A stretch of 36,881 nucleotides of DNA from a virus. How positions within the stretch are numbered: position 1 is the first letter of the stretch; every line of letters starts with the position of its first letter. Positions 5,983-36,097 of the stretch are shown one piece after another. The notes under the pieces are model-generated. The model saw only the letters and a list, made by a program, of their open reading frames with translations, made no database searches and was not told the origin of the DNA. Made by a program: the position numbers and the translations under genes. Location: UHGV virus genome UHGV-0123951, one strand, 5' to 3'.

Positions 5983-6849
5983 ATGAGCACTAAATTAACC
6001 GGCTACGTATGGGATGGTTGCGCGGCGTCGGGCATGAAGTTGTCTAGTGTCGCGATCATGGCCCGTCTCGCTGATTTCAGCAGCGATGAGGGTGTGTGCT
6101 GGCCGTCCATTGAAACTATTGCTCGCCAGCTTGGCGCAGGGCCGAGCACTATCAGAACGGCAATCGCAAAGCTTGAAAAAGATGGCTGGCTCACGCGTAC
6201 ACAGCGCCGTAATGGTAACCGTAATGCTTCGAACGTGTACCGCCTGAATGTGGCGAAACTTCAGGCTGCCGCATTTTCTCAACTGTCAGATTCTGACACG
6301 TCAAAATCTGACGCATCAAATTTTGACGCCTCAAAAACTGACCCGTCGAAATCTGGCAAAAAAGGCGGTTTTGACCCGTCAGAATCTGGCGGGGATCCGT
6401 CAGTAAAATCAAAACAAGATCCACAAGTAACTTCAAAACCCTCTTGTCCGGTTGCGGCGCAACCCGACCCTGAGGTTGTGATTACTGATCAGGCCAGACA
6501 GGTTTTGTCTTACCTGAACCAGACAACTGGTTCACGCTACCAGGTATGCAGCACGTCGCTGGAGAACATTCGCGCCCGTCTGCGGGAACAGTTCACTGTT
6601 GATGATCTGTGCCTTGTGGTGGATTACAAAAACGCTGATTGGCGTGATAGCGAGCAGGCTCAATACCTCCGCCCGGCAACTCTGTTTATTCCAAAAAACT
6701 TCCCCGGTTACCTGCAAAGCGCGACCAAATGGTCTGCCGCTGGGCGACCTGAACGCGTTAACGGTAAATGGGCGACTAACTCAGCCAGCCGCGCCAACTT
6801 CCAAAATGTTGACTATTCACTGCCAGAAAATTCGGGGTTCCGCTCATGA
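5983..6849 (+). CDS. replication initiator (lambda O-like), origin iterons embedded
   Basis: N-terminal HTH-like region; tandem repeats inside the ORF; GGGAGA RBS. Confidence 0.65.
   Translation: MSTKLTGYVWDGCAASGMKLSSVAIMARLADFSSDEGVCWPSIETIARQLGAGPSTIRTAIAKLEKDGWLTRTQRRNGNRNASNVYRLNVAKLQAAAFSQLSDSDTSKSDASNFDASKTDPSKSGKKGGFDPSESGGDPSVKSKQDPQVTSKPSCPVAAQPDPEVVITDQARQVLSYLNQTTGSRYQVCSTSLENIRARLREQFTVDDLCLVVDYKNADWRDSEQAQYLRPATLFIPKNFPGYLQSATKWSAAGRPERVNGKWATNSASRANFQNVDYSLPENSGFRS
6283..6405. repeat. tandem ~15-bp iterons (TCAAAATCTGACGCA-like): candidate phage origin
   Basis: At least 5 direct repeats with inverted-repeat cores (CGTCA...TGACG) encoding an S/D/K-rich linker. Confidence 0.55.
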
Positions 6850-8168
6850 TGCCAAATAAATATTGCCAGGCGCTGGCAGAACTGCGCAGTAAACCAGCTC
6901 ACGAATTGAAAGAAGTTGGAGATCAGTGGAGGACACCTGATCTGCTTTTCTGGGGGATCAACGCGTTATTTGGCCCATTAGTTCTGGACTTGTTTGCTGA
7001 CGACGACAACGCGAAATGCCCGGCATGGTACACCGCCGAAGATAACGCGCTGACCCAGGACTGGTCTGAACGTCTGGCAGAACTGGGTGGTGCAGGTTAT
7101 GGCAACCCACCGTATAGCCGTTCGCAGTACCACGAGAAACAGGCGATCACTGGTATGACGCACATCATGAAGTACGCAGCAGCCCAGCGCGAGAAGGGCG
7201 GTCGCTATGTATTCCTGATAAAAGCCGCGCCAAGTGAAACGTGGTGGCCGGAAGATGCCGATCACATTGTATTCATTCGCGGGCGCATTGGGTTCGATCT
7301 GCCAGTGTGGTTTGTACCTGCTGACGAAAAACAGAAGCCCACCAGCGCGTTTTTTGCCGGTGCCATAGCTGTATTCGATAACTCATGGCGTGGTGAGCGG
7401 TTCAGCTATATCAACCGTACTGAACTGGAGGCAAAAGGGCGGGCGTTTATGACTTTGGCGCAATTTGCTGCCAGCAAGTCTCAACCTGCAACTGCCATAC
7501 CATCTGTAGCTGACAAGCCAGAAGCAGAGTTGCCACTTACCCAGAAAGATATTTTTGATATCAGCGGTGTCGAGGCGTGGGCATGCGTTAGAGCTGCGTT
7601 CGGCGATAAAGAAGAATACACATTCAGTGAATCGAAGTTTGGGCATACCTGGGCGGCGGATTCTGTCGAAGCACCGGAATTCACTCAGGTATCACCATTA
7701 ACGATCGACAAAGCGAAGCTGCTTATTCGTGAGAGTATTTTGTTCGGTGTGGATGAGTGGCTGTTGTCGATTGAATTCGATGACGCTGCTGCGCGCCTGG
7801 ATATGTCGGAACGTATTCGTACTGTTGCCCTCGAAGCATCTGGTGAATATGGCATGAACAGTACTGATTTCATTGCAGCTATGGGAAGCCTGGATGTTTC
7901 CAGTTGGTCCAATATTCGCCAGATCCGCATGCACATCCGTGAGAAAGCTAAACCAGTATCGGATCCGCTTCCCGAGTCCCGTATCTGGCCGCTGGAGGTT
8001 GGAATTGTATTCGACCAGGTAGACGGCGCTGACATGCTGGATGAATCACAGCAGAACAAGCTGAAAGCCAACATCAATCAACTCTGGCTGGAACGAACGG
8101 CCACCAGCGAAATCATCACAATTGCGCGTGGTCTTGTCGGCAGCATGCAGGGGGTAACCCATGCGTGA
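6846..8168 (+). CDS. phage Dam-family N6-adenine DNA methyltransferase with ~250-aa C-terminal extension (440 aa)
   Basis: N-terminal domain with NPPY motif (GYGNPPYS); long extension of unknown function. Confidence 0.75.
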   Translation: MMPNKYCQALAELRSKPAHELKEVGDQWRTPDLLFWGINALFGPLVLDLFADDDNAKCPAWYTAEDNALTQDWSERLAELGGAGYGNPPYSRSQYHEKQAITGMTHIMKYAAAQREKGGRYVFLIKAAPSETWWPEDADHIVFIRGRIGFDLPVWFVPADEKQKPTSAFFAGAIAVFDNSWRGERFSYINRTELEAKGRAFMTLAQFAASKSQPATAIPSVADKPEAELPLTQKDIFDISGVEAWACVRAAFGDKEEYTFSESKFGHTWAADSVEAPEFTQVSPLTIDKAKLLIRESILFGVDEWLLSIEFDDAAARLDMSERIRTVALEASGEYGMNSTDFIAAMGSLDVSSWSNIRQIRMHIREKAKPVSDPLPESRIWPLEVGIVFDQVDGADMLDESQQNKLKANINQLWLERTATSEIITIARGLVGSMQGVTHA

Positions 8169-9978
8169 GATTATTGTTGATAACTTTGCTGGTGGCGGTG
8201 GCGCATCAACGGGTATTGAACTGGCGATCGGGCGCAGCGTGGATATTGCGATCAACCACGACGAAAACGCCATTGCGATGCACAAGACGAACCACCCGGA
8301 CACACTGCATTATTGTGAATCCGTTTTTGACGTGGATCCGGTAGCTGCCACCGGCGGTAATCCTGTCGGCCTGGCATGGTTTAGCCCGGACTGCCGACAC
8401 TTCTCGAAGGCAAAAGGCGCAAAGCCAGTGAAAAAAGAGATACGCGGTCTGGCCTGGATTGTTCTGCGTTGGGCACTGGCAAAGCGACCGCGCGTGATGA
8501 TGCTGGAGAACGTGGAAGAGTTCAAAACGTGGGGACCGCTGCTGGCCGATGAAATGCGTCCGGATCCTGCCCGCACTGGCGAAACATTCAATGCATTTGT
8601 CGGCATGCTGTCCACTGGCATTCCTGCTGATCACCCGGCACTGGCTGAGGTTTGTGAGTTTCTGTCTATCGAAAGAGGTAGCGAGCAGGCGCAAAAGCTG
8701 GTGGATGGGCTCGGATATGATGTTGATTATCGCGAACTACGCGCGTGTGATTACGGCGCGCCGACGATCCGCAAACGCTTCTTCATGGTTATGCGTTGCG
8801 ATGGTTGCCCAATCCAGTGGCCTGCTGTTAGCCATGGGGATCCTAAGTCGCTGGAGGTGCAAAGTGGCAGGCTGATGCCATGGCGTACCGCTGCGGAATG
8901 TATCGACTGGAATGTTCCGGCCCTGTCCATCTTCGACCGCAAAAAACCGCTGGCGGAGAACACTCTGAAGCGGATCGCGCGCGGCATACAGCGCTTTGTT
9001 ATCGAAAGTGCGTCGCCGTTTATCGTGAAGTGCAATCACACCAGCACCAAAACGAGTTACGACTGTTTCCGCGGTCAGAAGCTGGACGAGCCTTTGCAAA
9101 CTATTACTAAAACCCACGGTTACGCGTTAGCTGTTCCACATCTGACAAAATTCCGCACTGGCGCAACCGGGCAGCCCGTTACCGAACCTGTCCCGACGGT
9201 AACCGCTGGCACATCAAAACGTCCGGGTGGGAATGGGCATGCTCTCGGGATTGTTGAGGCTGCACTAACACCATTTCTGGCGGGTAATGGTGGTAGTGAA
9301 TACCAGGCTAAACCGCGCCCGCTGGATAAACCTGCTCATACCATTCTGAAGCAATCCCGCGCCTGTCTTGTTGCGCCAGTGATAGCCCGCCAGTTTGGGG
9401 CCAGCGTCGGCCACCGGGCAGACGAACCGAGCGCCACAATTACAGCTGGTGGTGGCGGTAAATCACAATTGGTGGGCGCGTTCCTGGCGAAACACTACGG
9501 CGGTAACTATACGGGGCCGGGTGTCAGTATGGATGAACCCGCGCATTCAGTGACCACTGTCGACCATCATGCGGTAGTTGCCTCTCATCTGGTGAAACTG
9601 CGTGGAACATGCCGCGACGGGCAACGCCTTGATGTGCCAATGCCAACAATCACCGCTGGTGGCCAACACGTGGGTGAGGTACGCACATTTCTCGAGACGT
9701 ATTGCGGGGAAAGTGACGATGAATGGCTGGTAACGATCGATGGGGTTAAATACCAGATCGTTGATATCGGAATGCGCATGTTGCAGCCGCATGAACTCTA
9801 CAAAGCGCAGGGCTTCCCGGATGGTTACGTTATTGATCAGGACTACCGTGGAAATCTCTATGCAAAAGATAAGCAGGTAGCCCGCTGCGGTAATGCGGTA
9901 CCACCACCATTCGCCAGGGCGCTGGTGGAGGCAAATCTTCCGGAACTGTGTGCAGTGCAACAGCAGGAGGTGGCATGA
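8161..9978 (+). CDS. DNA cytosine-5 methyltransferase (605 aa)
   Basis: Motif I DNFAGGGG, Cys motif SPDCRHFS, ENV motif MMLENVEEF, C-terminal GNAVPPP; overlaps the Dam gene by 8 nt. Confidence 0.75.
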   Translation: MREIIVDNFAGGGGASTGIELAIGRSVDIAINHDENAIAMHKTNHPDTLHYCESVFDVDPVAATGGNPVGLAWFSPDCRHFSKAKGAKPVKKEIRGLAWIVLRWALAKRPRVMMLENVEEFKTWGPLLADEMRPDPARTGETFNAFVGMLSTGIPADHPALAEVCEFLSIERGSEQAQKLVDGLGYDVDYRELRACDYGAPTIRKRFFMVMRCDGCPIQWPAVSHGDPKSLEVQSGRLMPWRTAAECIDWNVPALSIFDRKKPLAENTLKRIARGIQRFVIESASPFIVKCNHTSTKTSYDCFRGQKLDEPLQTITKTHGYALAVPHLTKFRTGATGQPVTEPVPTVTAGTSKRPGGNGHALGIVEAALTPFLAGNGGSEYQAKPRPLDKPAHTILKQSRACLVAPVIARQFGASVGHRADEPSATITAGGGGKSQLVGAFLAKHYGGNYTGPGVSMDEPAHSVTTVDHHAVVASHLVKLRGTCRDGQRLDVPMPTITAGGQHVGEVRTFLETYCGESDDEWLVTIDGVKYQIVDIGMRMLQPHELYKAQGFPDGYVIDQDYRGNLYAKDKQVARCGNAVPPPFARALVEANLPELCAVQQQEVA

Positions 9979-11058: not shown

Positions 11059-12050
11059 GAGCTCTGCTTACCCCCGAGATCGCCCATCGTATGGGGATTG
11101 TGTTGTTCCGTCCTGGTGCGGAACTGATGCACCTCTTCATGCGTGGTCGCGTTCTGCTCGAGCCTGAACCAGAAGAAATGGCGTCATTCAGTACCGGGGC
11201 TGTTCCGGCAGCCATTCAGCCGCTGACTGATGATCCGGTAATGCGTCAGGTCTTCGAGAATGAGAGGGTTATTCAGCGTGCCGGTGGGATTTCTTCCCTT
11301 GAGCAATGGTTGAGTAATCGGTTTGAATGCCAGTGGCCACATTCATCGTGGCACGACAAGAACTTCACAACAATGCGGCACCCACCAGGAAGTATTCGCC
11401 TGTGCTGGCATTGCGATCACACTTTGTCGGGGCAGCATACCGAACAGCTTGCAGGTATAGCGGCCGGAAACCTGGTATCCTGGATTCTGGAAGTCATTCG
11501 GCGTGATTCTGGTTTTCCCGAGTCGCATATCCTGACGCTTCCGGAACTGTGCTGGTGGATGGTCAGAAACGACCTGGCTGATATTATTCCGGAAAGCGTT
11601 GCGCACAAAGGGCTGCGCCTTCCGGATGAGAAGATCCGTTCTGTCATGAGGGAAAGCGACATAGTGCCTTCCTCGTCAGCAACCAGACTCGTTCAGGAGA
11701 AGGCGAAGAAGATCCTCACGCTCTCTGTTGATCCAGAGTCGCCAGAGTCTTTCATGCTCAGGCCAAAGCGACGCCGCTGGATAAATGAGACGTACACCCG
11801 CTGGGTTAAAACACAACCCTGTGAGTGTTGCCGACGGCCAGCAGATGATCCGCACCATATCGTAGGGCACGGTATGGGTGGTACAGCAACAAAAGCCCAT
11901 GACCTCTTCGTGATCCCTCTGTGCAGAGAGTGCCACGATGAGTTACACGCCGATGTACCGGCATTCGAGCAAAAGCATGGTACGCAGCTTGAGCTGCTAC
12001 TGCGTTTTATGGATCGGGCGCTGGCGATCGGCGTAATTGCGACAGCTTAA
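11055..12050 (+). CDS. DUF968-like phage protein with Cys/His cluster (YdfU-like)
   Basis: C-terminal CECCRRPADDPHHIV ... CRECHDELH motif; GTGA overlap with upstream stop. Confidence 0.55.
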   Translation: MRALLTPEIAHRMGIVLFRPGAELMHLFMRGRVLLEPEPEEMASFSTGAVPAAIQPLTDDPVMRQVFENERVIQRAGGISSLEQWLSNRFECQWPHSSWHDKNFTTMRHPPGSIRLCWHCDHTLSGQHTEQLAGIAAGNLVSWILEVIRRDSGFPESHILTLPELCWWMVRNDLADIIPESVAHKGLRLPDEKIRSVMRESDIVPSSSATRLVQEKAKKILTLSVDPESPESFMLRPKRRRWINETYTRWVKTQPCECCRRPADDPHHIVGHGMGGTATKAHDLFVIPLCRECHDELHADVPAFEQKHGTQLELLLRFMDRALAIGVIATA

Positions 12051-12066
12051 GAAGTATGGAGACCGT

Positions 12067-12897
12067 ATGAATCTGGACAATGTTTTAAAGTTTTTTGCGC
12101 CTAAAGGCATGCACATCTCAGATACCAGCAGAGCGACAGCAAGTGAGCAACTTACTGTGACTGATGTAATGGCGGCACTGGGGATGACTCAGGCTGATGC
12201 GGGCATCGGGCTGGCAATGTTTCTGGGTAAAGCTTGTATCAGCAGCCAGGACAGGGAGGCGTCAATTGCCTGGCTAACGGAGTACGCGAAAGAGCATGCT
12301 CCCATGGCTATTCGTAAAGCATCAGGGAAAAAGTTTCCCCTCTGCATGCGTATCCTTGCCCGGTTTGCCTATAACGATTATTCCTCATCAGCAGCTGATT
12401 GTGTGGCATGCCCAAAATGTAGTGGTAAAGGGTTGCTTACAACCACTAAAACCGTGACTAAAAGCCATTACACAATGCGATTGCCACAATGGGCAAAAGA
12501 CCTGAGACAGTCACCATCTGACTTTGAGGTTAAGCGCGATGTAACTGACACTGATCATACGTTATGTTCCCGCTGCCATGGCACCGGAAAGTTAAGTAAG
12601 CGATGCCAGTGCGGCGGCACAGGTAAGACTATTGACCGTAAAGCGACAGAACTGCAGGGCGTACCGGTTTACAAAGAATGTAAGCGCTGTGAAGGTCGGG
12701 GATACAGCAGGCCAAAATCATCGGTTGCCTATCGCGGTGTTTTTTCCGAGTTGCCCAGTCTGCCAGACCGGACGTGGCGTTATAGCTGGAAACCATTCTA
12801 TGAAATCTTGGTGACCAAATGTTTCCAGGAGGAGAGTTATTCAAGTTCTCAACTGAACCGGGTGACTAAAAGTGAAGATGTGATAAATATCGCGTAA
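12067..12897 (+). CDS. Q-like late-gene antitermination protein
   Basis: Multiple CxxC zinc-finger-like motifs; sits directly upstream of the late promoter/terminator and lysis cassette; start at MNLDNV with GGAGAC RBS. Confidence 0.65.
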   Translation: MNLDNVLKFFAPKGMHISDTSRATASEQLTVTDVMAALGMTQADAGIGLAMFLGKACISSQDREASIAWLTEYAKEHAPMAIRKASGKKFPLCMRILARFAYNDYSSSAADCVACPKCSGKGLLTTTKTVTKSHYTMRLPQWAKDLRQSPSDFEVKRDVTDTDHTLCSRCHGTGKLSKRCQCGGTGKTIDRKATELQGVPVYKECKRCEGRGYSRPKSSVAYRGVFSELPSLPDRTWRYSWKPFYEILVTKCFQEESYSSSQLNRVTKSEDVINIA

Positions 12898-12913
12898 TTT
12901 AGCGTCACGATGT

Positions 12914-12968
12914 TTGCAATGTTGCCGTTTTTGTGTATATTTGACATTAACGATGGGCATTGTATGTT
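12914..12968 (+). promoter_or_regulatory. late promoter region (PR'-like); two overlapping -35/-10 candidates
   Basis: TTGCAA/16/TATATT and TTGACA/16/TATGTT immediately downstream of the Q gene. Confidence 0.45.
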
Positions 12969-13327: not shown

Positions 13328-13362
13328 TTCACTCTCTAGTAAAACGCGGGACATAATCTATA

Positions 13363-13390
13363 GGCTGCCATTTGGCGGCCTTTTCTATTT
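13363..13390 (+). terminator. intrinsic terminator after the small moron ORF
   Basis: GGCTGCC-attt-GGCGGCC hairpin then TTTTCTATTT. Confidence 0.45.
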
Positions 13391-13839: not shown

Positions 13840-14457
13840 ATGAACCAACAACAATTTCAGCAGGCGGCTGGTATCAGCGCCGGGCTTTCTGCACGCTGGT
13901 TTCCGCACATTGATGCGGCAATGAAAGAGTTTGGAATCACAGCAGTAAACGATCTGGCTATGTTCATTGCACAAATTGGGCATGAATCTGCTGGTTTTAC
14001 CTCGCTGGTCGAGAGCTTCAACTACTCGGTAGACGGGCTAAAGAAAACCTTTGGTAAACGCCTGACACCGTATCAGTGTGAAATGCTGGGGCGAGTAGAT
14101 GGTAAGCAAGTGGCCCACCAGCCGCAAATAGCCAATCTGGTTTATGGTGACCGCATGGGAAATAACAGCCCGGGTGATGGCTGGAAATATCGCGGTCGTG
14201 GCCTGCTTCAAATCACCGGCCGCGAGAACTACACCAAATGCGGTTTGGCGCTGAAGCTTGACCTTGTCAGTACGCCAGAACTTCTGACGCAAGAGCGACA
14301 TGCGGCTCGTTCGGCGGCATGGTACTTCACCTTACGTGGTTGCCTTATGTATTCAGGTGATGTTGTTCGTGTCACGCAGATCATCAACGGTGGCCAGAAC
14401 GGGCTGGCTGACAGAAATAGTCGTTATAACAAAGCGCGGGCGGCGTTGCTGGTATGA
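13840..14457 (+). CDS. endolysin, glycoside hydrolase family 19 (chitinase-like lysozyme)
   Basis: GH19-like motifs ([27 protein letters not shown]); position after holin. Confidence 0.8.
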
Positions 14458-14987
14458 CAGCGGTCTTTGCTTTTGTTAAGGCGCGGTGGAATACAATCAT
14501 TGTTTTGCTGATGTTAGCTGGCGCGTTTCTTGCCGGGAATGTCTGGAGTGAGCGGGGCTGGCAAAAGAAGTGGGCTGACCGCAATAGCGTGGAATCTTCA
14601 CAGGAAGCGAACGCCCAGACCGCCGCCCGCATGATTGAACAAGGGCGAATTATTGCCCGTGATGAGGCTGTTAAAGATGCACAAGCACAAGCCGCTAAAT
14701 CTGCTGCCACTGCTGCTGGCCTGTCTGCCATTGTTAGCCAGTTGCGTACCGAAGCAACAAAGCTTGCCGCCCGCCTGGACGCAGCAAAGCACACCTCAGA
14801 TCTTGCCGCTGCCGTCAGAAGCAAAACAGGCGGAGCCAACGCAGGATTGCTTGCCAACATGCTCGGACGCCTTGCAGAAGAGGCTAAACGATATGCTGGA
14901 ATCGCTGACGACCGCTACAACGCTGGAATGACGTGTGAGCGTGTTTACGACTCGGTAAGAGAGTCGAATAACAAAAGGGTTGAATGA
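14454..14987 (+). CDS. Rz-like i-spanin
   Basis: N-terminal TM segment, Ala/Gln-rich coiled-coil-like periplasmic part; follows endolysin. Confidence 0.7.
14677..14931 (+). CDS. Rz1-like o-spanin, embedded in +1 frame of Rz
   Basis: Lipoprotein signal with lipobox LLAS-C, proline-rich mature region, fully embedded in the Rz ORF. Confidence 0.65.
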
Positions 14988-15217
14988 TGAATGTCGAAAA
15001 TCTGACCGAAGCATATTACATCAACAACGGGATAAAAGAGCTACAACGACAGAAAGGCATACTGGAAAGTGGTGATGGGCTTGGTGTGACAATTCAGTCT
15101 ACCTATCAGGATAAAGCCTTTGTTGATGCTATTCGCCCACATGCAGTGGCTGAACTTAATCGCCGGATTGAGGAAAAGAAAACCGTCCTGGTTAGTTTTG
15201 GCATCTCTTTCACTTAA
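14984..15217 (+). CDS. hypothetical protein (77 aa)
   Basis: Track ORF; start overlaps Rz stop. Confidence 0.45.
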
Positions 15218-15236
15218 GGAATCCTGTGGAGGATTT

Positions 15237-15464
15237 ATGCGTCTCACTGTATTAGATGACGATCCCGGCAGAAAAATTAATCTCGCTCAGGAACGATACA
15301 CCGTTTATCTCGACGGTGTAGAGGTTAAGCATGTTTTCACTGCTGATGATGAAAAAGGCGAGGTGATTGCCGCTGTACCCGATGAGCGCGGGTATATGAC
15401 GGCAGAGAACGGCGAAGTGAAACGGCGGTCGCTTTACGGGAAGGTCACCATTAAGCGTCAATAA
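15237..15464 (+). CDS. hypothetical protein (75 aa)
   Basis: Start moved to the ATG preceded by GGAGGA; track start at 15120 is an upstream extension. Confidence 0.5.
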   Translation: MRLTVLDDDPGRKINLAQERYTVYLDGVEVKHVFTADDEKGEVIAAVPDERGYMTAENGEVKRRSLYGKVTIKRQ

Positions 15465-15481
15465 ACCCTGATGGAGAAATT

Positions 15482-16939
15482 ATGCAGGTCACTATTGATG
15501 GTGTCCCGTATTTGCCTGCCTGTGCTTCAGCGTCACGGATTGGCATTGCGATTACCACCCACAACCGGGCGGACGTTTTAAAGCGTGCTGTTGAGCAGCA
15601 CCAGAAGCATCTGCCAGCCGGTGCGCTGCTGGTGGTTGTCGATGATGGTTCAAAACCTGCAGCGATAGCACCCGACGGCGTGCAACTGCTTCGCCATGAA
15701 ACATCACTCGGCATTGTTGCCTCGAAGAACGCCAGCCTGTCAGCCCTGATGGATGTCGGGTGCGAGCATCTGTTTTTATGGGATGATGATGCCTGGCCCA
15801 TCGCCGATAACTGGCATCTTCCCTACATCGAATCACCAGAGCCGCACCTGGCTTACCAGTTTCTGGATCTGGCTGGTCGCAATAAGCTGAACGACATGGC
15901 GGAGCTGTACCGTGATGATAAGCATGTTGCTTACACTGGTCAGCGCGGGGTGATGCTTTACTACCACCGCAGCGCCATCAAGAAGGTTGGCGGATTCGAT
16001 CCGGTATACGGTCGCGGCATGTACGAGCATCCCGATCTGGCGCTTCGGATTCACAACGCTGGTTTAACGTCGTGGGCGTTCGCTGATGTAGTTGGCTCTG
16101 AAAAGCTGATTCACTCAATGGACGAGTACGAAGAGGGCGTGCGCTCAATACCACGGCCTGACCGAGAGGCACTGGTAAAAAGAAACGTTGGCATCTTCAA
16201 CGCTCGACGCGACAGCGGTTATACAGGCTTTGCCTCGTACAGCAGAAATCCAAATCTAGTGATTACGACGCTGCTCACAAGCCAGCCAGACCCACAGCGA
16301 GGCAGGAAGATGAAACCCGACCCGCAGGCTCTTCAGGCTTGGGCAGATTCAATATCCGGCGCGCTGCCGATTGTCCTGGCTGACGAATTAAAAGAGTCGC
16401 CAACTGGCGCCGGTCTGTTTGAAGTCCCGCCGTTGGGCATGAGCCCATACTTTGCTCGCTGGCTTCACATCTATCAGTATCTTCGTGCCCACCCTGAATA
16501 CCATCTTGTCTGGTGTACTGACGGGACAGACGTTGAAATGCTGCGTGAGCCTTGGGCAGAGATGGCGCCGGGTAAAATTTACGTTGGCTCCGAGCACAAA
16601 ACCTACTTTGACGAATGGATGAAGGACAATCACCACGGCAAAGCTTATAGCGAGTTCTTCGAACTGCACCGGGATGAGCAACTGCTTAATGCTGGCCTGA
16701 TTGGTGGCTACCGTGAAGATGTAATGGAGTTCGCCCACCGGATCATCCGTCAGCATTACCTTATTGAAAGCCACCGCTTCTGGAAGATGGAAGCAGCTCC
16801 CGCCACGCTGGTGGACATGGGCGCTTTCGGGATGGCTGCAAAGTCATTCGGTAATCGAATCGTTACCGGCCCTCTGGTGCATACCATCTTTAAAACGGAT
16901 GGCTTCGGAAAGGAGACCGCATGGTGGAAACACAAGTGA
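15482..16939 (+). CDS. family 2 glycosyltransferase with ~250-aa C-terminal domain of unknown function (485 aa)
   Basis: GT2 signature (IAITTHNR ... LLVVVDDGS ... WDDDAW); no obvious membrane spans; GGAGAA RBS. Confidence 0.7.
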   Translation: MQVTIDGVPYLPACASASRIGIAITTHNRADVLKRAVEQHQKHLPAGALLVVVDDGSKPAAIAPDGVQLLRHETSLGIVASKNASLSALMDVGCEHLFLWDDDAWPIADNWHLPYIESPEPHLAYQFLDLAGRNKLNDMAELYRDDKHVAYTGQRGVMLYYHRSAIKKVGGFDPVYGRGMYEHPDLALRIHNAGLTSWAFADVVGSEKLIHSMDEYEEGVRSIPRPDREALVKRNVGIFNARRDSGYTGFASYSRNPNLVITTLLTSQPDPQRGRKMKPDPQALQAWADSISGALPIVLADELKESPTGAGLFEVPPLGMSPYFARWLHIYQYLRAHPEYHLVWCTDGTDVEMLREPWAEMAPGKIYVGSEHKTYFDEWMKDNHHGKAYSEFFELHRDEQLLNAGLIGGYREDVMEFAHRIIRQHYLIESHRFWKMEAAPATLVDMGAFGMAAKSFGNRIVTGPLVHTIFKTDGFGKETAWWKHK

Positions 16940-17511
16940 AGTATGTTGTGATTGGTCACCATTCCCGCTATGCCTCAGCTGCATTGCTGGCTGGCGAACT
17001 TGGCGCACACCTGCTTATCGATGAAGGGAATCACGGTGCGAACTGGAATCACCGGCGCGCTATCGAATGGGCTGCTGAGCAACCTTGCCGGGTAGTGGTG
17101 CTGGAAGACGACGCGCTGCCTGTACGTGGATTCAGAGACAAGATTACGGGCTGGCTGGCTCGTTTCCCTGGCGACATGCTTAGTTTTTATCTGGGCACTG
17201 GGCGGCCACCGCAATACCAAATGCAGATAGCTGAACGCCTGATTAATGCGGATAAGGTGAGGTCTGACTTCATTATGCTGCAACGCCTGATACATGGCGT
17301 GTGCTACAGCATACCGCCTCAAAGCATCAGCCGTGTGCTGTCTCAATGGGACTGCAGTAAGCCTGCCGATTATGCCGTGGGCGATGCTTATGGTGGCGTT
17401 GTCGTCTATCCCTGCTGGTCGCTGGTGGACCATGCAGACGGCGAACCGGTTGAGCGTCACCCTGACTCAGCTCCACGAACAGAACGCCGCCGGGCGTGGA
17501 GGTTAGCCTGA
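16921..17511 (+). CDS. hypothetical protein, possibly GT-A-like (196 aa)
   Basis: VVVLEDDALP segment resembles a DxD-type motif; AGGAGA RBS; overlaps the glycosyltransferase stop. Confidence 0.45.
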   Translation: MVETQVKYVVIGHHSRYASAALLAGELGAHLLIDEGNHGANWNHRRAIEWAAEQPCRVVVLEDDALPVRGFRDKITGWLARFPGDMLSFYLGTGRPPQYQMQIAERLINADKVRSDFIMLQRLIHGVCYSIPPQSISRVLSQWDCSKPADYAVGDAYGGVVVYPCWSLVDHADGEPVERHPDSAPRTERRRAWRLA

Positions 17512-17861
17512 TGCCTGCGTTAATACCGAGAGCATGCCGCAAGCGTGGCTGCCCTGGCACAACCACTGACCGCTCAGGCTATTGTCCCAAGCACCTTAAC
17601 GAAGGCTGGCAGCAGCATCAGCGAGGACAGAGCAGGCATCAGCGAGGTTATGGCAGCAAGTGGGACAGGCTGCGCCCAATCGTTCTCGACAGAGATAAAC
17701 ACCTTTGTCAGGAATGCCTGCGAAATGGAAGGTATACACCCGCTGAGACGGTGGACCACATCACCGCCAAAGCAAATGGGGGGACCGATGACCTGTCCAA
17801 CCTCGAAAGCCTCTGCAAGCCCTGCCACAGGGCAAAGACAGCGGTCGATAGGCTCAAATGA
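17511..17861 (+). CDS. HNH endonuclease (terminase-associated)
   Basis: Cys/His HNH pattern (CQECLRNG ... HITAKANGG ... NLESLCKPCH); GGAGG RBS; directly upstream of terminase genes. Confidence 0.8.
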   Translation: MPALIPRACRKRGCPGTTTDRSGYCPKHLNEGWQQHQRGQSRHQRGYGSKWDRLRPIVLDRDKHLCQECLRNGRYTPAETVDHITAKANGGTDDLSNLESLCKPCHRAKTAVDRLK

Positions 17862-22427: not shown

Positions 22428-23639
22428 ATGTCTGAAGTAAACGATATTCTGAAAAAAGTCACGGCCAGCATTGAAGAGGCAACCGGCAAGTTCAACGCGA
22501 AAGCAGAAGAAGCAGTGAAGGAGGCGCAGAAGTCAGGCAAGTTGTCAGAAGAAACAAAGGCAGCCGTCGATAAAATGGCTTCTGAGTTCAACGCCCTGCG
22601 CGAAGCAGAAAAAACGCTGAAGGCAGCGATGGGCGAACTGGAGCAACATGTCGCCCAGATGCCGCTGGCAAACGCGAAGCATGTTGTGGAATCAATCGGT
22701 CAGCAGGTCATCTCTGCTGAAGCTCTGAAAACCTTTGCCTCCGGCGTGGAAGGTGGCAAACGTATCAGTATCCCGGTTAAGGCCGCACTGACTTCTGCGG
22801 ATGTGCCTGATGGCGTCGTCGAACCCCAGCGAATTCCGGGCATTGATACAGCACCGAAACAGCGCCTGTTCATCCGCGATCTGATTGCGCCTGGCCGCAC
22901 TTCCTCCCCGGCTATTTTCTGGGTGCAACAGACAGGCTTTACCAACAAAGCGAAGGTGGTTCCTGAAAATACTCAGAAACCATACAGCGATATTGAGTTT
23001 ACGCCAAAAATCACGGGCGTCAGCACCATCGCTCACCTGTTCAAAGCCTCAAAGCAGATCCTGGATGACTTCGCACAGCTGCAGTCAACCGTTGATGCCG
23101 AAATGCGCTACGGACTGAAGTACGCGGAAGAGCAGGAAATTCTCTTCGGTGACGGTACCGGTGTACATCTGCATGGCATTGTTCCTCAGGCGTCAGCGTT
23201 TAACCCGGCGTTTACTGTTGAACAGCAGAGCAGTATTGACGATCTGCGTCTGGCAATGCTGCAGGCGCAACTGGCGCGCTTCCCTGCATCCGGTCACGTT
23301 CTTCACTTCATCGACTGGGCGCGGATCGAACTGACAAAAGACAGCCTGGGCCGCTACATCCTGGCTAACCCTGCAGCGCTGACTGGGCCGACGCTGTGGG
23401 GCCTGCCGGTTGTTGCCACTGAAGCGGCAGCCTTCCAGGGTAAATTTTTGACTGGTGCTTTCAACGCTGGCGCGCAAATCTTCGACCGCGAAGATGCGAA
23501 TGTCGTTATCTCCACGGAGAACGCCGACGATTTCGAGAAAAACATGATCACCATCCGTTGCGAGGAACGTCTGGCGCTGGCCGTCAAACGCCCTGAAGCG
23601 TTCGTGTATGGCTCCTTCAGCACCGGCGCAGGTAGCTGA
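22428..23639 (+). CDS. major capsid protein (HK97 fold)
   Basis: 403-aa ORF after the protease; followed by an intrinsic terminator. Confidence 0.85.
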   Translation: MSEVNDILKKVTASIEEATGKFNAKAEEAVKEAQKSGKLSEETKAAVDKMASEFNALREAEKTLKAAMGELEQHVAQMPLANAKHVVESIGQQVISAEALKTFASGVEGGKRISIPVKAALTSADVPDGVVEPQRIPGIDTAPKQRLFIRDLIAPGRTSSPAIFWVQQTGFTNKAKVVPENTQKPYSDIEFTPKITGVSTIAHLFKASKQILDDFAQLQSTVDAEMRYGLKYAEEQEILFGDGTGVHLHGIVPQASAFNPAFTVEQQSSIDDLRLAMLQAQLARFPASGHVLHFIDWARIELTKDSLGRYILANPAALTGPTLWGLPVVATEAAAFQGKFLTGAFNAGAQIFDREDANVVISTENADDFEKNMITIRCEERLALAVKRPEAFVYGSFSTGAGS

Positions 23640-25570: not shown

Positions 25571-26062
25571 ATGTCAGTAGTGACTCAAGGCACTCAACTT
25601 TTTGTGCTCGCGAATGGTGTCGTGAGCGAAATCGAATGTATTACGGCATTTTCACCAGGCGGCAGCCCTGCAGATCAGATTGATGATACGTGCCTCAGTG
25701 AACGCAACACCCGAAAATATAAAAAGGGTCTGCGTACACCGGGGCAGGCGACGGCCACGCTTAACGCTGATCCACAGAATGCCAGCCATCTGATGCTCAG
25801 TAATATGGCTGAATCAAATGATCAGAGTGATGTGACATTTGCGATCGGATGGTCCGATGGCGAGTCTAAACCAACAACGGGGAGTTCCCCTGATGCTGTT
25901 GATGGACTGATTCTACCTTCAGATCGTACCTGGTACGTGTTCAAAGGTTATGTTTCCGACTTCCCGTTTGACTTCCAGGGTAATACCGTCGTGCAGACGT
26001 CTGCTACCATCCAGCGCTCTGGCCAGGGGGCATGGATTCCTAAAGAACAGCCAGGCAGTTAA
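25571..26062 (+). CDS. major tail (tube) protein
   Basis: Start moved to MSVVTQ (GGAG 6 nt upstream); the track start at 25349 overlaps the preceding gene. Confidence 0.65.
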
Positions 26063-26844: not shown

Positions 26845-27564
26845 ATGGCTTTAATTAAATGCAAAGAGTGTGGAGAACAGGTATCTGATAAGGCCGCATC
26901 ATGTCCAAAGTGCGGAGCTCCCATAGCAAAAAAAAACAAAGGCCCATCGGGATGTATGATGGTGTTTTTTATTTTTGTAGGGGTTCTTATCCTTCTTTTG
27001 TTTATTGGCAAAGTAAGCAATAAAAAAGAAGCACCTAGCCAAACAGTGGGTAGCACTCAGGTAAGCACTGATAAGTTGAAAAATGATGTCGTAAAAGAAG
27101 TAGAGGTAAAAAAAGAACCAGTTACAGTTATTAACTGGCATAACCAACCCACGAAAGATAGCGTTACTGGTGAGGTTGGGGAGATTTTTTATAATACATC
27201 GAAAAACCATGTTAATTTCCCATTCCCATACAACGTTGATGGTGGTTCTGTACTCAACTTGGTTTTCCGCAAAAGAAAACAAGGTACTGATGCCTATGTC
27301 GTGATATCTAAAGGTCAGATTGTATGTGGTTACTCAGATTGCTCAATAAGAACGAAGGGCGATAACGGAAAGGTAAAAATCTGGACTGCAAGTAGTGAGG
27401 CGTCTGGAAGATCAGATATGATTTTTCTTGATAACCCACAGTCTTTCGAAAAATATATCAAGAGCAATAAAAAAATCACTATTGGAGTGACATTTTATCA
27501 ATCTGGCGAACAGGGGTTCGATTTTGATGTTTCAGATTATCCAGAGCAAGCAAAGAAAAAATAA
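26845..27564 (+). CDS. zinc-ribbon, single-pass membrane protein (239 aa), AT-rich moron
   Basis: N-terminal CxxC-x12-CxxC, hydrophobic helix (MMVFFIFVGVLILLLFIG), ~180-aa Lys-rich C-terminal domain; AGGAGA RBS. Confidence 0.6.
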   Translation: MALIKCKECGEQVSDKAASCPKCGAPIAKKNKGPSGCMMVFFIFVGVLILLLFIGKVSNKKEAPSQTVGSTQVSTDKLKNDVVKEVEVKKEPVTVINWHNQPTKDSVTGEVGEIFYNTSKNHVNFPFPYNVDGGSVLNLVFRKRKQGTDAYVVISKGQIVCGYSDCSIRTKGDNGKVKIWTASSEASGRSDMIFLDNPQSFEKYIKSNKKITIGVTFYQSGEQGFDFDVSDYPEQAKKK

Positions 27565-27599
27565 AAGTAATATTTACACTATTTAATAAGCATTAAAAT

Positions 27600-27624
27600 G
27601 CCTCGCTTTGCGGGGCTTTTTTTT
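27600..27624 (+). terminator. intrinsic terminator after the zinc-ribbon moron
   Basis: GCCTCGC-tttg-CGGGGC hairpin then T8. Confidence 0.6.
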
Positions 27625-27638
27625 ACCTGGAGGACAGC

Positions 27639-30113
27639 GTGGCAAGTAAATCATTAGGTACATTAACGATAGACTTAATTGCCAAAGTTGGCGGCTTTGT
27701 TGGCGGCCTAAGCCAGGCTGAAAGGGCATCGCAGAAATGGCGAAAACAGGTTCAAGAGGATGCAAAATCTGTAGCTGTTGCATTCACAGGGGCAGCAACT
27801 GCAGCAAGCGCCGCTGCTATTGGCGTAGGTGTGGCTGGATACAACCTGTTAAAAAACACCTCCAGGCAAATTACTGAGTCTGACCGTTGGGCTAAGTCGC
27901 TCAACATGTCTACTCAATCATTACTTGCTTGGCAGTATGCTGCAGAAAAAGCAGGTGTTTCAGGCGATCAAATGGCTGATATTTTTAAAGATATCGGAGA
28001 TAAAATTGGTGACTCGGTACTGAATAAATCAGGTGAGGCAGTAGATGCATTGGATGCACTCGGTTTATCAGCTAAAAAATTATCGAGTGAATCGCCGGAT
28101 AAGCAACTTTTAGCCATAAGTGATGCGCTAAGCAAGATTAAAACAAACGCTGAAAAGACTACTATTCTTGAAAGCTTGGGTAACGATCTCTCTAAGTTGC
28201 TTCCTTTGCTTGATCAGGGCGGTGATAAATTACAAAAATATATTAAGGCTGCGAAAGAATTTGGCGTAGCACCAGATGATACCGATATAGAAAGTCTCGT
28301 AAAAGTTAATTCAATCTTTGAGGATATGGAAAACCAAGTTAAAGGGGTTAAGATTGAATTATCAGCTGGATTAGCAAAGGTTGACCTTTCTAACCTGCAG
28401 AAATCAATTAGCGACATGGGTGATGTATTTAAAGACCATGAAGTTATCAAAGGTATCACCAACCTTGTTAGTGGCGTGGTCGACCTCGCTACCTGGCTTG
28501 TTAAGGTTGGAGCGGAAGCAGGAAAACTCATCGATCTTTACAAAGGGGGACAGGCAGTAGGGGAGAATGCATCTATAGAGGAAATTGATCGTCGCATAAG
28601 AAACCTTGATGCAGATTTAAATGACGAAGGTTTTCTTGCAGATTTCAACAGATTAGGAATGGATGTGGAAAGGAAACGGGCTGAACGATCAGAGCTTGAA
28701 CGCCGCCGAGCAATCCTTAAAGCAGGAAATAACCTACCTCTATATCCAGCAACCATAGGTAATTATTCTTCATCTAAAACAGATTATGGTCTTGACGCAG
28801 GAGAATCAAACGGGAAATTAAAAACTGATACTTCAGCAAAAAAAATTGAATCAGCTTTTAAATCAATGGAGACAAGTTACCTCCGTCAGATTGCTCTCAT
28901 CGACACCACTGGAAAGAAAAGCGCAGAAGTTACTGAACAGCAAAAACTACAATTTGATATCGCTGACGGAAAGCTAAATGGACTTAATGAAACACAGAAG
29001 CAACGCCTTGAACAACTGGCTACAGAGGTTGATCGCCTAAATTCCGTAAAAAAGGCAAACGAGGAAAATCTAAAACTGGCTGAATACGTATCGAACCTTC
29101 AGCGTGAAAATGCGAATTCAGCGGCTTCTCTTGATGCAGATGTCATTGGCGCAGGACTCGGTGATAAAGCCCGCGAAAGGATGCGTGAGCAACTCAGCAT
29201 TGAACGCGAATTTCTGGAGAAGCGAGAGGATTTGCAACGGCGGTATCAGAGCGGAGATATTCGTAGCCAAGAGGATTATGACCGTTATAACCAGGAACTG
29301 GACAAAGCGCTTGCTGAGCGACTCGATAAATACCGTTCTCATTATGACCAACTGGATGAGTTACAGGGAAACTGGCTGGCAGGGGCTCAGAATGGTCTGG
29401 CTAACTGGGTAGATACTTCCAGCGATTATTACACTCAGGTATCAGATTTAGTCGGTAACACCCTTGATGGCCTGGTGGATAACATGGCTGATGCCCTCAG
29501 TGGTAATAAAGCTGACTGGGCAAGTTGGGCGAACAGTGTGTTGAATGAGCTGCAGAAAGTCTTGCTCAGGGCAATTATGGTCAACACGCTTAAATCTGCT
29601 GGTGATAGCGGTTGGTTTGGTTCACTTGGTGGGATGTTTGGTAGTTCAGTGGCTGGCGCAGCATCCGCTGGCGGTGCAACACCGTCCGGAGCTTATACAG
29701 GTGCGGCATCTCAATTGAAATTCGCCAAGGGTGGTGTAATGGATTCGCCTGATCTTAGTCGTTTCCGTAATGGCGTCGTGAACAGTCCGACGATGTTTGC
29801 TTTCGCCAAAGGTGCGGGGCTCATGGGAGAAGCTGGTCCTGAAGCTATTATGCCCCTTACGCGTACTGCTGACGGTAACCTCGGTGTTCGTATGGTGGAT
29901 GACACGGTTTCTTCTGTTGGCGGTGGTGGTGCTCAGCTCCAGCAAACTATTCAGCAGCATTTCTCTATTTCCGGTAACGGAGATGCCGCACTGAAGCAGG
30001 CTATGCAGGAAGCTGCACGACAGGGTGCTAATGATGGTGCAAAACAGGCGCGTAAGGATTTGCTTCAGGATTTCTCTAATAGAGGACAGGCAAGGCGATT
30101 ACTTGGCGTGTAA
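27639..30113 (+). CDS. tail tape measure protein (824 aa), GTG start
   Basis: Long coiled-coil-rich ORF after the G/GT chaperone; GGAGGA RBS before GTG. Confidence 0.85.
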   Translation: MASKSLGTLTIDLIAKVGGFVGGLSQAERASQKWRKQVQEDAKSVAVAFTGAATAASAAAIGVGVAGYNLLKNTSRQITESDRWAKSLNMSTQSLLAWQYAAEKAGVSGDQMADIFKDIGDKIGDSVLNKSGEAVDALDALGLSAKKLSSESPDKQLLAISDALSKIKTNAEKTTILESLGNDLSKLLPLLDQGGDKLQKYIKAAKEFGVAPDDTDIESLVKVNSIFEDMENQVKGVKIELSAGLAKVDLSNLQKSISDMGDVFKDHEVIKGITNLVSGVVDLATWLVKVGAEAGKLIDLYKGGQAVGENASIEEIDRRIRNLDADLNDEGFLADFNRLGMDVERKRAERSELERRRAILKAGNNLPLYPATIGNYSSSKTDYGLDAGESNGKLKTDTSAKKIESAFKSMETSYLRQIALIDTTGKKSAEVTEQQKLQFDIADGKLNGLNETQKQRLEQLATEVDRLNSVKKANEENLKLAEYVSNLQRENANSAASLDADVIGAGLGDKARERMREQLSIEREFLEKREDLQRRYQSGDIRSQEDYDRYNQELDKALAERLDKYRSHYDQLDELQGNWLAGAQNGLANWVDTSSDYYTQVSDLVGNTLDGLVDNMADALSGNKADWASWANSVLNELQKVLLRAIMVNTLKSAGDSGWFGSLGGMFGSSVAGAASAGGATPSGAYTGAASQLKFAKGGVMDSPDLSRFRNGVVNSPTMFAFAKGAGLMGEAGPEAIMPLTRTADGNLGVRMVDDTVSSVGGGGAQLQQTIQQHFSISGNGDAALKQAMQEAARQGANDGAKQARKDLLQDFSNRGQARRLLGV

Positions 30114-35152: not shown

Positions 35153-36097
35153 ATGCCTGAAGGAATTCTGATCGACTACAATGATGGACGCCCGGCAATG
35201 GCAATTACTGCAGGGCTGCGTGCCCCAAGTTTTTGCACATCCTTCTCGGGCTGGTCATCCCAGTCAATGCAGTACCCGGTCAATACGCCACTTGTTCCCG
35301 GCTCACTGGCTATCGTTGTACCCACCAATCCCATTTACATCTATTCCTTCGCTGAATTTGATGTGGCCATTATGACAGGAGTCACCCGAAACGGGGACGC
35401 CGGGGTCATCATTGGTGCTGAGACAATCGGTGGTAAAGCCCTTACTCCGGATTGGTCAGGCTACGTCATGGAGCTGCTGCCCGCGGCGACTTATAACGAA
35501 GGGCTGTTTATTTCAAACTCGACAGACTTTACCGCCATCTCCAACCAGGCCGCCCTGATGACCTGCGCTTATTCCGGGCGCATTACGGTTAGCGGCAGCG
35601 CGCCGCTTCCGGTGGGTGGTATTCCTTTTGGTAAATGGGATAACCCGAATGTGTCTGTGGGGTTTAATGGCAGCGACATCATCGTTCGCGATATTTCCTA
35701 CTACGGGCGGGACGACGTGGCCGGAACGGCGACGATTGACCTGGTGATATTCAATCAGACAGCACCTGTCGGCGGCGACGGTATCACAATGACCAACGCC
35801 GCAGGCCAGGTCACGTTCTCCACGCTGAAACGCCCTTTTGTCTATGACCGGCAAATCCAGATTACCGATGCCTTTCAGGATATTGGGGGCGGGTTCTGCC
35901 AGATAGTCTATACCGGCGTTCAGGTGCGTATGAGTGGTGGATGGGGAAATATCAGAACCAAAGGCGTGGTCATGTCAGGTGGTAGCGTCAGGTCAGCCTA
36001 CAACAAAGTGTTTGCGGACCGCTATTCTGGCGCATGGGATATGACCCGTAACAGAAATATCGCCATGCCCATTCTAATTCTTCCGAACATGTACTGA
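35153..36097 (+). CDS. tail-associated hypothetical protein (314 aa)
   Basis: Track ORF between host-specificity gene and tail fibre gene. Confidence 0.5.
   Translation: MPEGILIDYNDGRPAMAITAGLRAPSFCTSFSGWSSQSMQYPVNTPLVPGSLAIVVPTNPIYIYSFAEFDVAIMTGVTRNGDAGVIIGAETIGGKALTPDWSGYVMELLPAATYNEGLFISNSTDFTAISNQAALMTCAYSGRITVSGSAPLPVGGIPFGKWDNPNVSVGFNGSDIIVRDISYYGRDDVAGTATIDLVIFNQTAPVGGDGITMTNAAGQVTFSTLKRPFVYDRQIQITDAFQDIGGGFCQIVYTGVQVRMSGGWGNIRTKGVVMSGGSVRSAYNKVFADRYSGAWDMTRNRNIAMPILILPNMY

Follow-up and report, generated by a model that had tools for sequence, protein, structure and literature searches.

The Unified Human Gut Virome (UHGV) virus genome UHGV-0123951, a stretch of 36,881 nucleotides that is here called the window, is the genome of a temperate lambdoid phage that is HK97-like and has a Citrobacter-type host, and its nearest protein matches are from Citrobacter portucalensis. 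Between the lysis genes and the genes for an HNH endonuclease and the terminase there are four co-oriented open reading frames (ORFs), all present as the initial annotation described them. Two of these, GT485 and GT196, encode putative glycosyltransferases (GTs), and it is this gene pair, together with the Gly-Ser dipeptide found at the C-termini of the major capsid and tail-tube proteins, that is considered here in relation to glycosylation of the phage particle. The main features are as follows.

15482–16939, + strand: GT485, a soluble protein of 485 aa with two putative glycosyltransferase domains; full-length match to phrog_1579 (E 8e-226)
15482–16225, + strand: N-domain of GT485 (aa 1 to ~248), with DDGS at residues 54–57 and DDD at 101–103 (nt 15782–15790)
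16229–16936, + strand: C-domain of GT485 (aa ~250–485), with TDGTD at residues 346–350 (nt 16517–16531)
16921–17511, + strand: GT196, a soluble, GT25-like protein of 196 aa; match to phrog_854 'glucosyltransferase' (E 1e-70)
22428–23639, + strand: major capsid protein, 403 aa, HK97 fold family; phrog_10 major head protein; ends in ...GSFSTGAGS-stop
25571–26062, + strand: major tail (tube) protein, 163 aa; phrog_158 major tail protein; ends in ...IPKEQPGS-stop

The glycosyltransferase pair and its mycobacteriophage relatives

The large protein was initially said to carry a 'clear' GT2 catalytic signature, which is borne out in part. The Pfam Glycos_transf_2 score of GT485 is 18.8 bits, below the cut-off of 23.3, but the DDGS and DDD motifs are, like TDGTD, invariant in 62 GT485 homologues, and both Che9c gp82 (24.9 bits) and Boomer gp102 (27.4 bits) exceed the cut-off. 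The mycobacteriophage orthologues pass GT2 and nearly pass Glyco_transf_7C. This is the combination seen in polypeptide GalNAc-transferases, with scores that are at or below threshold here; GT485 differs from such GT-A enzymes in that it has no lectin domain and no membrane anchor, and has a second domain with a DxD-like motif fused to it.

The C-terminal half, described at first as an unassigned domain, can be regarded as a second domain with a DxD-like motif because TDGTD is invariant, and it is most likely also a glycosyltransferase, judging from this motif. A search of 1.84 billion representative proteins with the C-terminal half gave 526 relatives, of which about half are stand-alone proteins of 210–240 aa and about half are fused behind an N-domain of ~250 aa, as in GT485. 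The domain is still without a family assignment, since a Pfam scan of 53 diverse relatives gave weak GT34 matches in four of them and nothing else. Searches of PDB chains with single sequences and with family profiles gave nothing significant, and matches in NCBIfam are far below threshold.

GT196 has no match in Pfam. Che8 gp110 and Boomer gp105 score 32 bits against Pfam Glyco_transf_25, where the cut-off is 24, and Che9c gp83 scores 21.9. The match of these relatives to GT25 (PF01755, galactosyl- and glucosyltransferases of lipo-oligosaccharide or lipopolysaccharide, LPS) covers the region with the EDD motif but spans only ~50 residues, and the acceptor proposed for GT196 is a protein C-terminus and not a lipid-linked oligosaccharide. 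The VVVLEDD segment (residues 58–64), which had been pointed out as DxD-like, proves to be part of a conserved LEDDAxP motif (E62–D64 at nt 17104–17112); the protein also has an SLVDHxD motif. When GT196 is aligned with Che8 gp110, Che9c gp83, Boomer gp105, Myrna gp238 and Corndog gp38, 27 columns are invariant, and E62, D63, D64, A65 and P67 are invariant from the enterobacterial through the mycobacterial homologues.

Both families are abundant, with >990 clusters of the large GT and >1,700 of the small GT at 90% identity. An alignment-based scan of viral contigs for distant relatives of GT196 yielded only close ones (73–100% identity) and no new host range, but it supplied the second sample of loci described below.

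When GT485 and GT196 were compared by tblastn with 50,697 phage records, GT196 matched 662 Mycobacterium phage records and the C-domain of GT485 matched 350, the latter with 40–43% identity over ~96% of the query among the matches listed. GT485 is 44% identical to Che9c gp82 over 486 residues (E 1e-138) and 39% identical to Myrna gp234 (E 4e-100); GT196 is 34% identical to Che8 gp110 over nearly the full length (E 2e-28) and 31% identical to Myrna gp238. By sequence, GT485 is a full-length orthologue of Che9c gp82 and Myrna gp234, and GT196 is an orthologue of Che8 gp110 and Corndog gp38. The counterparts of GT485 are Che9c gp82, Boomer gp102 and Myrna gp234. Che8 gp108 and gp109 were considered for this role and rejected, as they have no significant BLASTP similarity to GT485; the elongating GTs of Che8, i.e. 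gp108 (GT2 plus methyltransferase) and gp109, differ in this respect from the window protein.

Gene order is also shared. Che9c has gp82 (a 478-aa GT), gp83 (a 208-aa GT) and gp84 (HNH), followed by the genome end and the terminase, and Che8 has gp108–110 (GTs), gp111 and gp112 (HNH). The HK97-like coliphages ECP1 and HK542 display the order GT, GT, HNH, terminase, as in the window.

Phage virion glycosylation was first shown in 2023, and the abstract of Freeman et al. from that year is said to speak of scant evidence of glycosylation in the wider phage population. The mycobacteriophage genes concerned are Che8 gp108–110, Corndog gp36–38 and Myrna gp234/gp238, with Che9c gp82/gp83 and Boomer gp102/gp105. 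Passages in the published work state that virions of Che8, Corndog and Myrna bear glycans, with Che8 gp110 and Corndog gp38 being essential to the glycosylation of the capsid (PMC12363180), that the glycans are situated on the C-termini of capsid and tail-tube subunits (PMC12619734), and that they are O-linked and provide shielding from antibodies (PMC11652166, PMC13445384). A June 2026 report from the Hatfull group has a passage that still calls virion glycosylation a feature of 'some other actinobacteriophages' (PMC13313380). To the extent of these passages, the literature describes actinobacteriophages only, and virion glycosylation is apparently unreported for phages of Gram-negative hosts. 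The window and the mycobacteriophage system have in common orthologous enzymes, the catalytic motifs, a gene order beside HNH and terminase, and Ser-ended capsid and tail-tube subunits. They differ in that the window belongs to an HK97-like lambdoid temperate phage of Gram-negative Enterobacterales, and in that the module lies directly 3′ of the lysis cassette.

Gly-Ser termini of capsid and tail-tube subunits

The final Gly-Ser codons of the capsid protein are at positions 23631–23636 and those of the tail-tube protein at 26054–26059. Apart from these two, the + strand of the window has a single Gly-Ser-ended ORF among its 61 ORFs of ≥60 aa, a spurious one of 62 aa that lies opposite the early genes. 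In HK97 gp5 only the N-terminal delta domain is removed, so the C-terminus of the capsid subunit stays in the mature particle. The termini in the mycobacteriophages are:

Che8: capsid ..NKTGS, tail tube ..YSDGS
Boomer: capsid ..VPDGS, tail tube ..YSDGS
Corndog: capsid ..PLVGS, tail tube ..IKGDS
Che9c: capsid ..VETAS, tail tube ..AGDGS

No further structural gene of these four phages has a Gly-Ser end. The subunits of L5 and Bxb1 end in ..TEA, ..PEG, ..SVG and ..DVV, a comparison that covers the termini only.

The association between the termini and the GT pair was assessed in two samples. The first consists of 160 loci with relatives of the window's capsid protein (72–100% identity), taken with 10 kb on each side and scored by tblastn; the comparison extends over 121 related loci. 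The capsid protein ends in Gly-Ser in 54/56 loci with the GTs (GT+) versus 5/66 loci without them (GT–), with a Fisher p of 4e-26 that is not corrected for phylogeny and overstates independence, because many of the loci are closely related. When distinct 8-residue capsid termini are counted instead, 13/15 in GT+ loci have the Gly-Ser end versus 4/40 in GT– loci. At the tail-tube position, a Gly-Ser-ended ORF of 147–165 aa is present in 51/53 GT+ loci versus 7/59 GT– loci. These ORFs are of three types that have no BLAST similarity to one another, although all belong to phrog_158. The type found in the window ends in ..QPGS, ..QAGS or ..EAGS in GT+ loci, and in ..KAST, ..TKSA, ..GTTP, ..KKT or ..PKV in GT– loci. 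The background is low: among the other ORFs of at least 100 aa in the first-sample loci, 2919 in number, five have Gly-Ser at the end (0.17%).

The association is kept in loci with a different terminase (31–38% identity), and in loci with a near-identical terminase but no GTs the Gly-Ser signature is mostly missing. The second, independent sample was picked by GT196 and not by the capsid protein. Here, at least two Gly-Ser-ended ORFs are found downstream in 53/56 loci, and the sample includes capsid types that are 36–46% identical to that of the window or undetectably related to it. Shared ancestry is an insufficient explanation, because the Gly-Ser end appears repeatedly, in capsid and tail-tube lineages that are unrelated and in phages of two bacterial phyla.

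A further Gly-Ser end is found on a 108-aa head–tail adaptor, Ad1, in ECP1 (L169:1770–2096) and HK542 (L170:5170–5496). HK97-type loci within L176–L255 also have a Gly-Ser-ended Ad1 (..EEGS, ..EPEEGS, ..EQGEGS); the window's own adaptor does not have this end. Ad1 might be a third substrate, or its terminus might be a coincidence of that lineage.

Proposed glycosylation of the virion and alternative explanations

It is probable that GT485 and GT196 constitute a two-gene module for cytoplasmic O-glycosylation of virion subunits, i.e. the capsid and tail-tube proteins. Virion-protein glycosylation is favoured because of the mycobacteriophage homology, the identical synteny and the Gly-Ser ends that co-vary with the GT pair. 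The initial annotation had left the choice between virion glycosylation, DNA glycosylation and a host-directed modification open; the virion option is the one selected here, and the arguments against DNA glycosylation and serotype conversion are given below.

In the proposed mechanism, the GT pair would be transcribed with the lysis and structural genes from a Q-dependent late promoter, and the enzymes, being soluble and late-transcribed, would meet the newly made virion subunits in the cytoplasm. GT196 would recognize the free C-terminal ...Gly-Ser-COOH of the capsid and tail-tube proteins and add the first sugar to Ser. It is the best candidate for the initiator because no other enzyme family is present in all of the Che8, Corndog, Myrna, Che9c, Boomer and enterobacterial systems, and the best candidate for acceptor recognition because the acceptor signature is likewise common to all of them. 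Both domains of GT485 would then extend the glycan, and the finished particle would have hundreds of short O-glycans, on its tail as well as its head. If they act as in the mycobacteriophages, these may protect the surface from binding by antibodies or other factors. Homology, synteny, solubility, late-operon position and the co-variation of the Gly-Ser ends with the GT pair are observed; we infer the roles of GT196 as the initiating, acceptor-recognizing enzyme and of GT485 as the glycan-extending enzyme, as well as which sugar is used, which residue carries it and how the phage profits.

Several points, in addition to the close relationship of many of the loci, weigh against this interpretation. 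Glycosylation of the window phage's virions is a prediction from its genes. AlphaFold models of both GTs are poor (pLDDT ~53) because the alignment is too shallow, and they do not establish the fold or the active-site geometry; fold searches with these models gave only generic GT-A/GT2 matches. HK97 lacks the GT genes, and still its capsid protein gp5 (L171, 4028–5185) ends in ..KGTFSSGS. This end is identical to that of the GT+ phages HK542 and ECP1; the tail tube ends in ..TLTIS in HK97 versus ..ASGS in HK542 and ECP1. The five GT– loci mentioned above retain a Gly-Ser capsid terminus, and L010, L057, L093 and L109 are among the GT– loci that keep Gly-Ser termini. Conversely, the capsid Gly-Ser end is missing in 2/56 GT+ loci, and that of the tail tube in two GT+ loci, L099 and L160. 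Mixed cases are L162, which is GT+ and has a non-Gly-Ser capsid end with a Gly-Ser tail-tube end, and L164, which is GT– and has a Gly-Ser tail-tube end. These exceptions fit mosaic exchange and recent gain or loss, and the mosaics L028, L093, L109, L162 and L164 could serve to date such events. The Gly-Ser signature can persist after the enzyme has gone, but the enzyme seldom occurs in its absence.

KpSz_1, a 299-kb jumbo phage of Klebsiella (MN871448), is a different kind of exception. It has adjacent homologues of GT485 (57%) and GT196 (44%) at L256:18538–20597, most neighbouring genes being on the other strand. Of the 350 ORFs in its whole genome (MN871448, L257–L262), three end in Gly-Ser and none of these is of capsid-protein size, which also counts against the proposed role; one is a 178-aa phrog_2935 'virion structural protein' (113779–114315, ..QDGFGS). 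The Gly-Ser rule does not simply extend to KpSz_1.

Such exceptions would accord with the view that the GTs act on some other protein, either of the host or of the phage, and that the Gly-Ser ends are an unrelated trait of the lineage. HK97 keeps Gly-Ser on its capsid without GTs, KpSz_1 has the GT pair without a capsid-sized Gly-Ser-ended ORF, and the 108-aa adaptor is a third protein with this end in HK97-type heads. However, Gly-Ser accompanies the GTs in unrelated lineages of both capsid and tail tube, across two bacterial phyla and against the background of 0.17%, a pattern for which lineage inertia is insufficient; this explanation is quite unlikely. Lysogenic conversion, by which the GTs would modify the LPS core, lipo-oligosaccharide or another envelope glycan from the cytoplasmic face and cause superinfection exclusion or a serotype change, is unlikely as well. 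It would accord with the match of GT196 relatives to Pfam Glyco_transf_25, an 'LPS biosynthesis protein', with the PHROGs category of both GT families ('moron, auxiliary metabolic gene and host takeover'), and with the location, as the gap between Rz and terminase is a classical moron site in lambdoid phages, e.g. that of lambda bor. The Gtr clusters (GtrA/GtrB/GtrC) are also glycosyltransferase genes on temperate phages of Enterobacteriaceae, and Gtr proteins are membrane proteins that are expressed by the prophage near the attachment site. Unlike these, the window GTs are soluble, belong to the late operon and have no adjoining GtrA/GtrC-type partner; no flippase adjoins the pair either, the other genes of the window not having been searched by name. 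None of the four ORFs has a Gtr family match in Pfam, PHROGs or NCBIfam. The initial annotation had stated that the large protein has no obvious membrane spans and does not look like a GtrB-type enzyme, and the hydropathy values agree: the maximal Kyte–Doolittle 19-residue mean is ~1.0 for GT485 and GT196 and <0.3 for the two small ORFs, orf77 and orf75, versus 1.8–1.9 for the holin and Rz controls, and none of the four has a hydrophobic span. The pair has no promoter-like site of its own and no strong flanking terminator, and its stops and starts overlap within the late operon. Moreover, the same module is found in mycobacteriophages, whose hosts have no LPS, and conversion leaves the Gly-Ser co-variation unexplained.

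The failure to explain this co-variation of the capsid and tail-tube C-termini with the GT pair also argues against glycosylation of DNA, where the GTs would add sugars to modified bases and thereby block restriction. The models for this are the T4 alpha- and beta-glucosyltransferases and the TET-associated GTs, which are likewise phage-encoded soluble glycosyltransferases, and which require hydroxymethylated bases. The window does encode a C5-cytosine DNA methyltransferase (8161–9978) and a second methyltransferase (6846–8168), Myrna gp234 has a weak, sub-cut-off match to Pfam TAGT (E 0.009), and a site beside the packaging genes would suit a DNA function. However, apart from that one match in a homologue, the window GTs have no significant sequence similarity to phage DNA glucosyltransferases, and their nearest characterized relatives act on virion proteins. 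In addition, the scan of the early region and left arm, which took in ~19 ORFs of 0–13 kb with a few short ones left out (CII, an O-like replication protein, the two methyltransferases, RusA, Ant, DUF968, Q, RdgC and a deoxyribonucleoside monophosphate (dNMP) phosphatase-like protein among them), gave no TET/5mYOX dioxygenase, no dCMP/dUMP hydroxymethylase and no other enzyme that hydroxymethylates bases. A hydroxymethylating enzyme is a partner in the DNA-hypermodification clusters that have been described (bioRxiv 10.1101/2023.12.21.572611). DNA glycosylation is therefore very unlikely.

If virion subunits are indeed the substrates, sugar-coated particles may be common among phages of gut Enterobacterales, which would bear on immunogenicity, on clearance in therapy and on behaviour in mucus. 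The free C-terminal Gly-Ser might represent a minimal portable acceptor tag that is read by the GT25-like enzyme and is common to phages of Actinobacteria and Proteobacteria. In that case the common HK97-like phages that infect E. coli, Salmonella, Citrobacter, Enterobacter and Klebsiella, among them the laboratory phages HK542, mEp390 and ECP1, would have head and tail coated with glycans, which would alter their recognition by gut antibodies or by capsid-sensing bacterial defences, and two genes and a two-residue tag would make up a tool for cytoplasmic O-glycosylation in E. coli; this is put forward as a tentative idea, somewhat more apt to fail than to hold. The process would be open to dissection in E. 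coli K-12 by use of HK542, mEp390, ECP1 and the Gly-Ser-ended HK97 capsid, and HK97 could act as a natural acceptor-only control for trans-complementation. A strict Gly-Ser-COOH rule would also offer a very small acceptor tag for glyco-engineering.

The late operon and other features of the window

On the + strand of the window, the genes of the early region and of regulation encode CII-like and O-like proteins, two DNA methyltransferases, RusA, Ant, DUF968 and the Q-like antiterminator. The lysis genes, i.e. holin, GH19 endolysin and Rz (DUF2514), are 5′ of the four ORFs. To the 3′ side are HNH, TerS, TerL, portal, protease, major capsid protein and connectors, and these are followed by the major tail protein, chaperones, tape measure and tail tip. 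Features around the GT pair are:

12037–12897, + strand: Q-like antiterminator gene; phrog_127, Pfam Antiterm
12913–12968, + strand: promoter-like site (consensus scan)
13362–13381, + strand: terminator-like hairpin upstream of the holin gene (consensus scan)
14984–15217, + strand: orf77, small soluble protein; phrog_5415, function unknown
15237–15464, + strand: orf75, small soluble protein; phrog_24619/3540, function unknown; ATG preceded by GGAGGA
17511–17861, + strand: HNH endonuclease; Pfam HNH (E 1.6e-15), 35% identity to Che8 gp112

Between 13400 and 18600, the consensus scan of the + strand gave neither promoter-like sites nor strong terminator-like ones; there are two weak terminator-like matches, at 14445–14464 and 15757–15772, and both are intragenic. 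With neither a promoter-like site nor a strong terminator-like site inside this stretch, the module appears to belong to the late transcript rather than to be an autonomous moron. In HK542, PR′/qut is annotated at the place equivalent to the late-promoter region of the window. The late-operon position supports a predicted co-expression of the GT pair with the structural genes.

The tight coupling of the genes, with overlapping stops and starts, was correctly noted at the outset. Rz and orf77 share ATGA, the translationally coupled GT485 and GT196 have 19 nt in common, and the junction of GT196 and HNH is TGATG. As this sequence is shared by the two genes, the HNH start is at 17511. The orf77–orf75 and orf75–GT485 junctions are gaps of 17–19 nt.

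The supposition that the four ORFs form one module did not survive a check of co-occurrence, and was rejected: orf77 and orf75 occur sporadically, in a minority of GT+ loci only, and a homologue of orf75 is also present in the GT– locus L028. The module thus consists of two genes, and orf77 and orf75 are variable cargo outside it. The HNH gene is conserved beside the GT pair, yet it is also present in many GT– loci; it is a terminase-associated neighbour and lies outside the pair.

Within the Rz gene (14454–14987), an ORF at 14662–14931 (+ strand) is embedded in the +1 frame and has a lipoprotein-box-like LLASC sequence. It is most likely the Rz1 o-spanin nested in Rz.

The two methyltransferase genes (6846–8168 and 8161–9978, + strand) are adjacent and overlap. 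The product of the first belongs to phrog_111 and has a PAPS-reductase-like N-terminal part, and the second gene encodes a C5-cytosine methylase of 605 aa, which Pfam matches in two separate stretches, with large unassigned inserts. Also in the early region, on the – strand at 1025–1708, is a gene for a 227-aa protein that matches phrog_318 'deoxyribonucleoside 5′ monophosphate phosphatase' (E 1e-96) and has no Pfam match; a dNMP phosphatase-like gene is unusual cargo for a lambdoid prophage.

In the tail region, positions 26845–29000 (+ strand) have a GC content of ~40%, compared with a window mean of ~51%. The stretch takes in the 5′ portion of the tape-measure gene (27639–30113) and an ORF of 239 aa (26845–27564) that has only weak matches, to functionally uncharacterized PHROG families. 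It looks like a foreign insert or a mosaic joint. Directly 3′ of the gene for the central tail fibre J, at 35153–36097 (+ strand), a 314-aa protein is encoded that matches phrog_1265 'membrane protein' (E 1e-118), a family in the moron/host-takeover category, and this is possibly a superinfection-exclusion or conversion gene.

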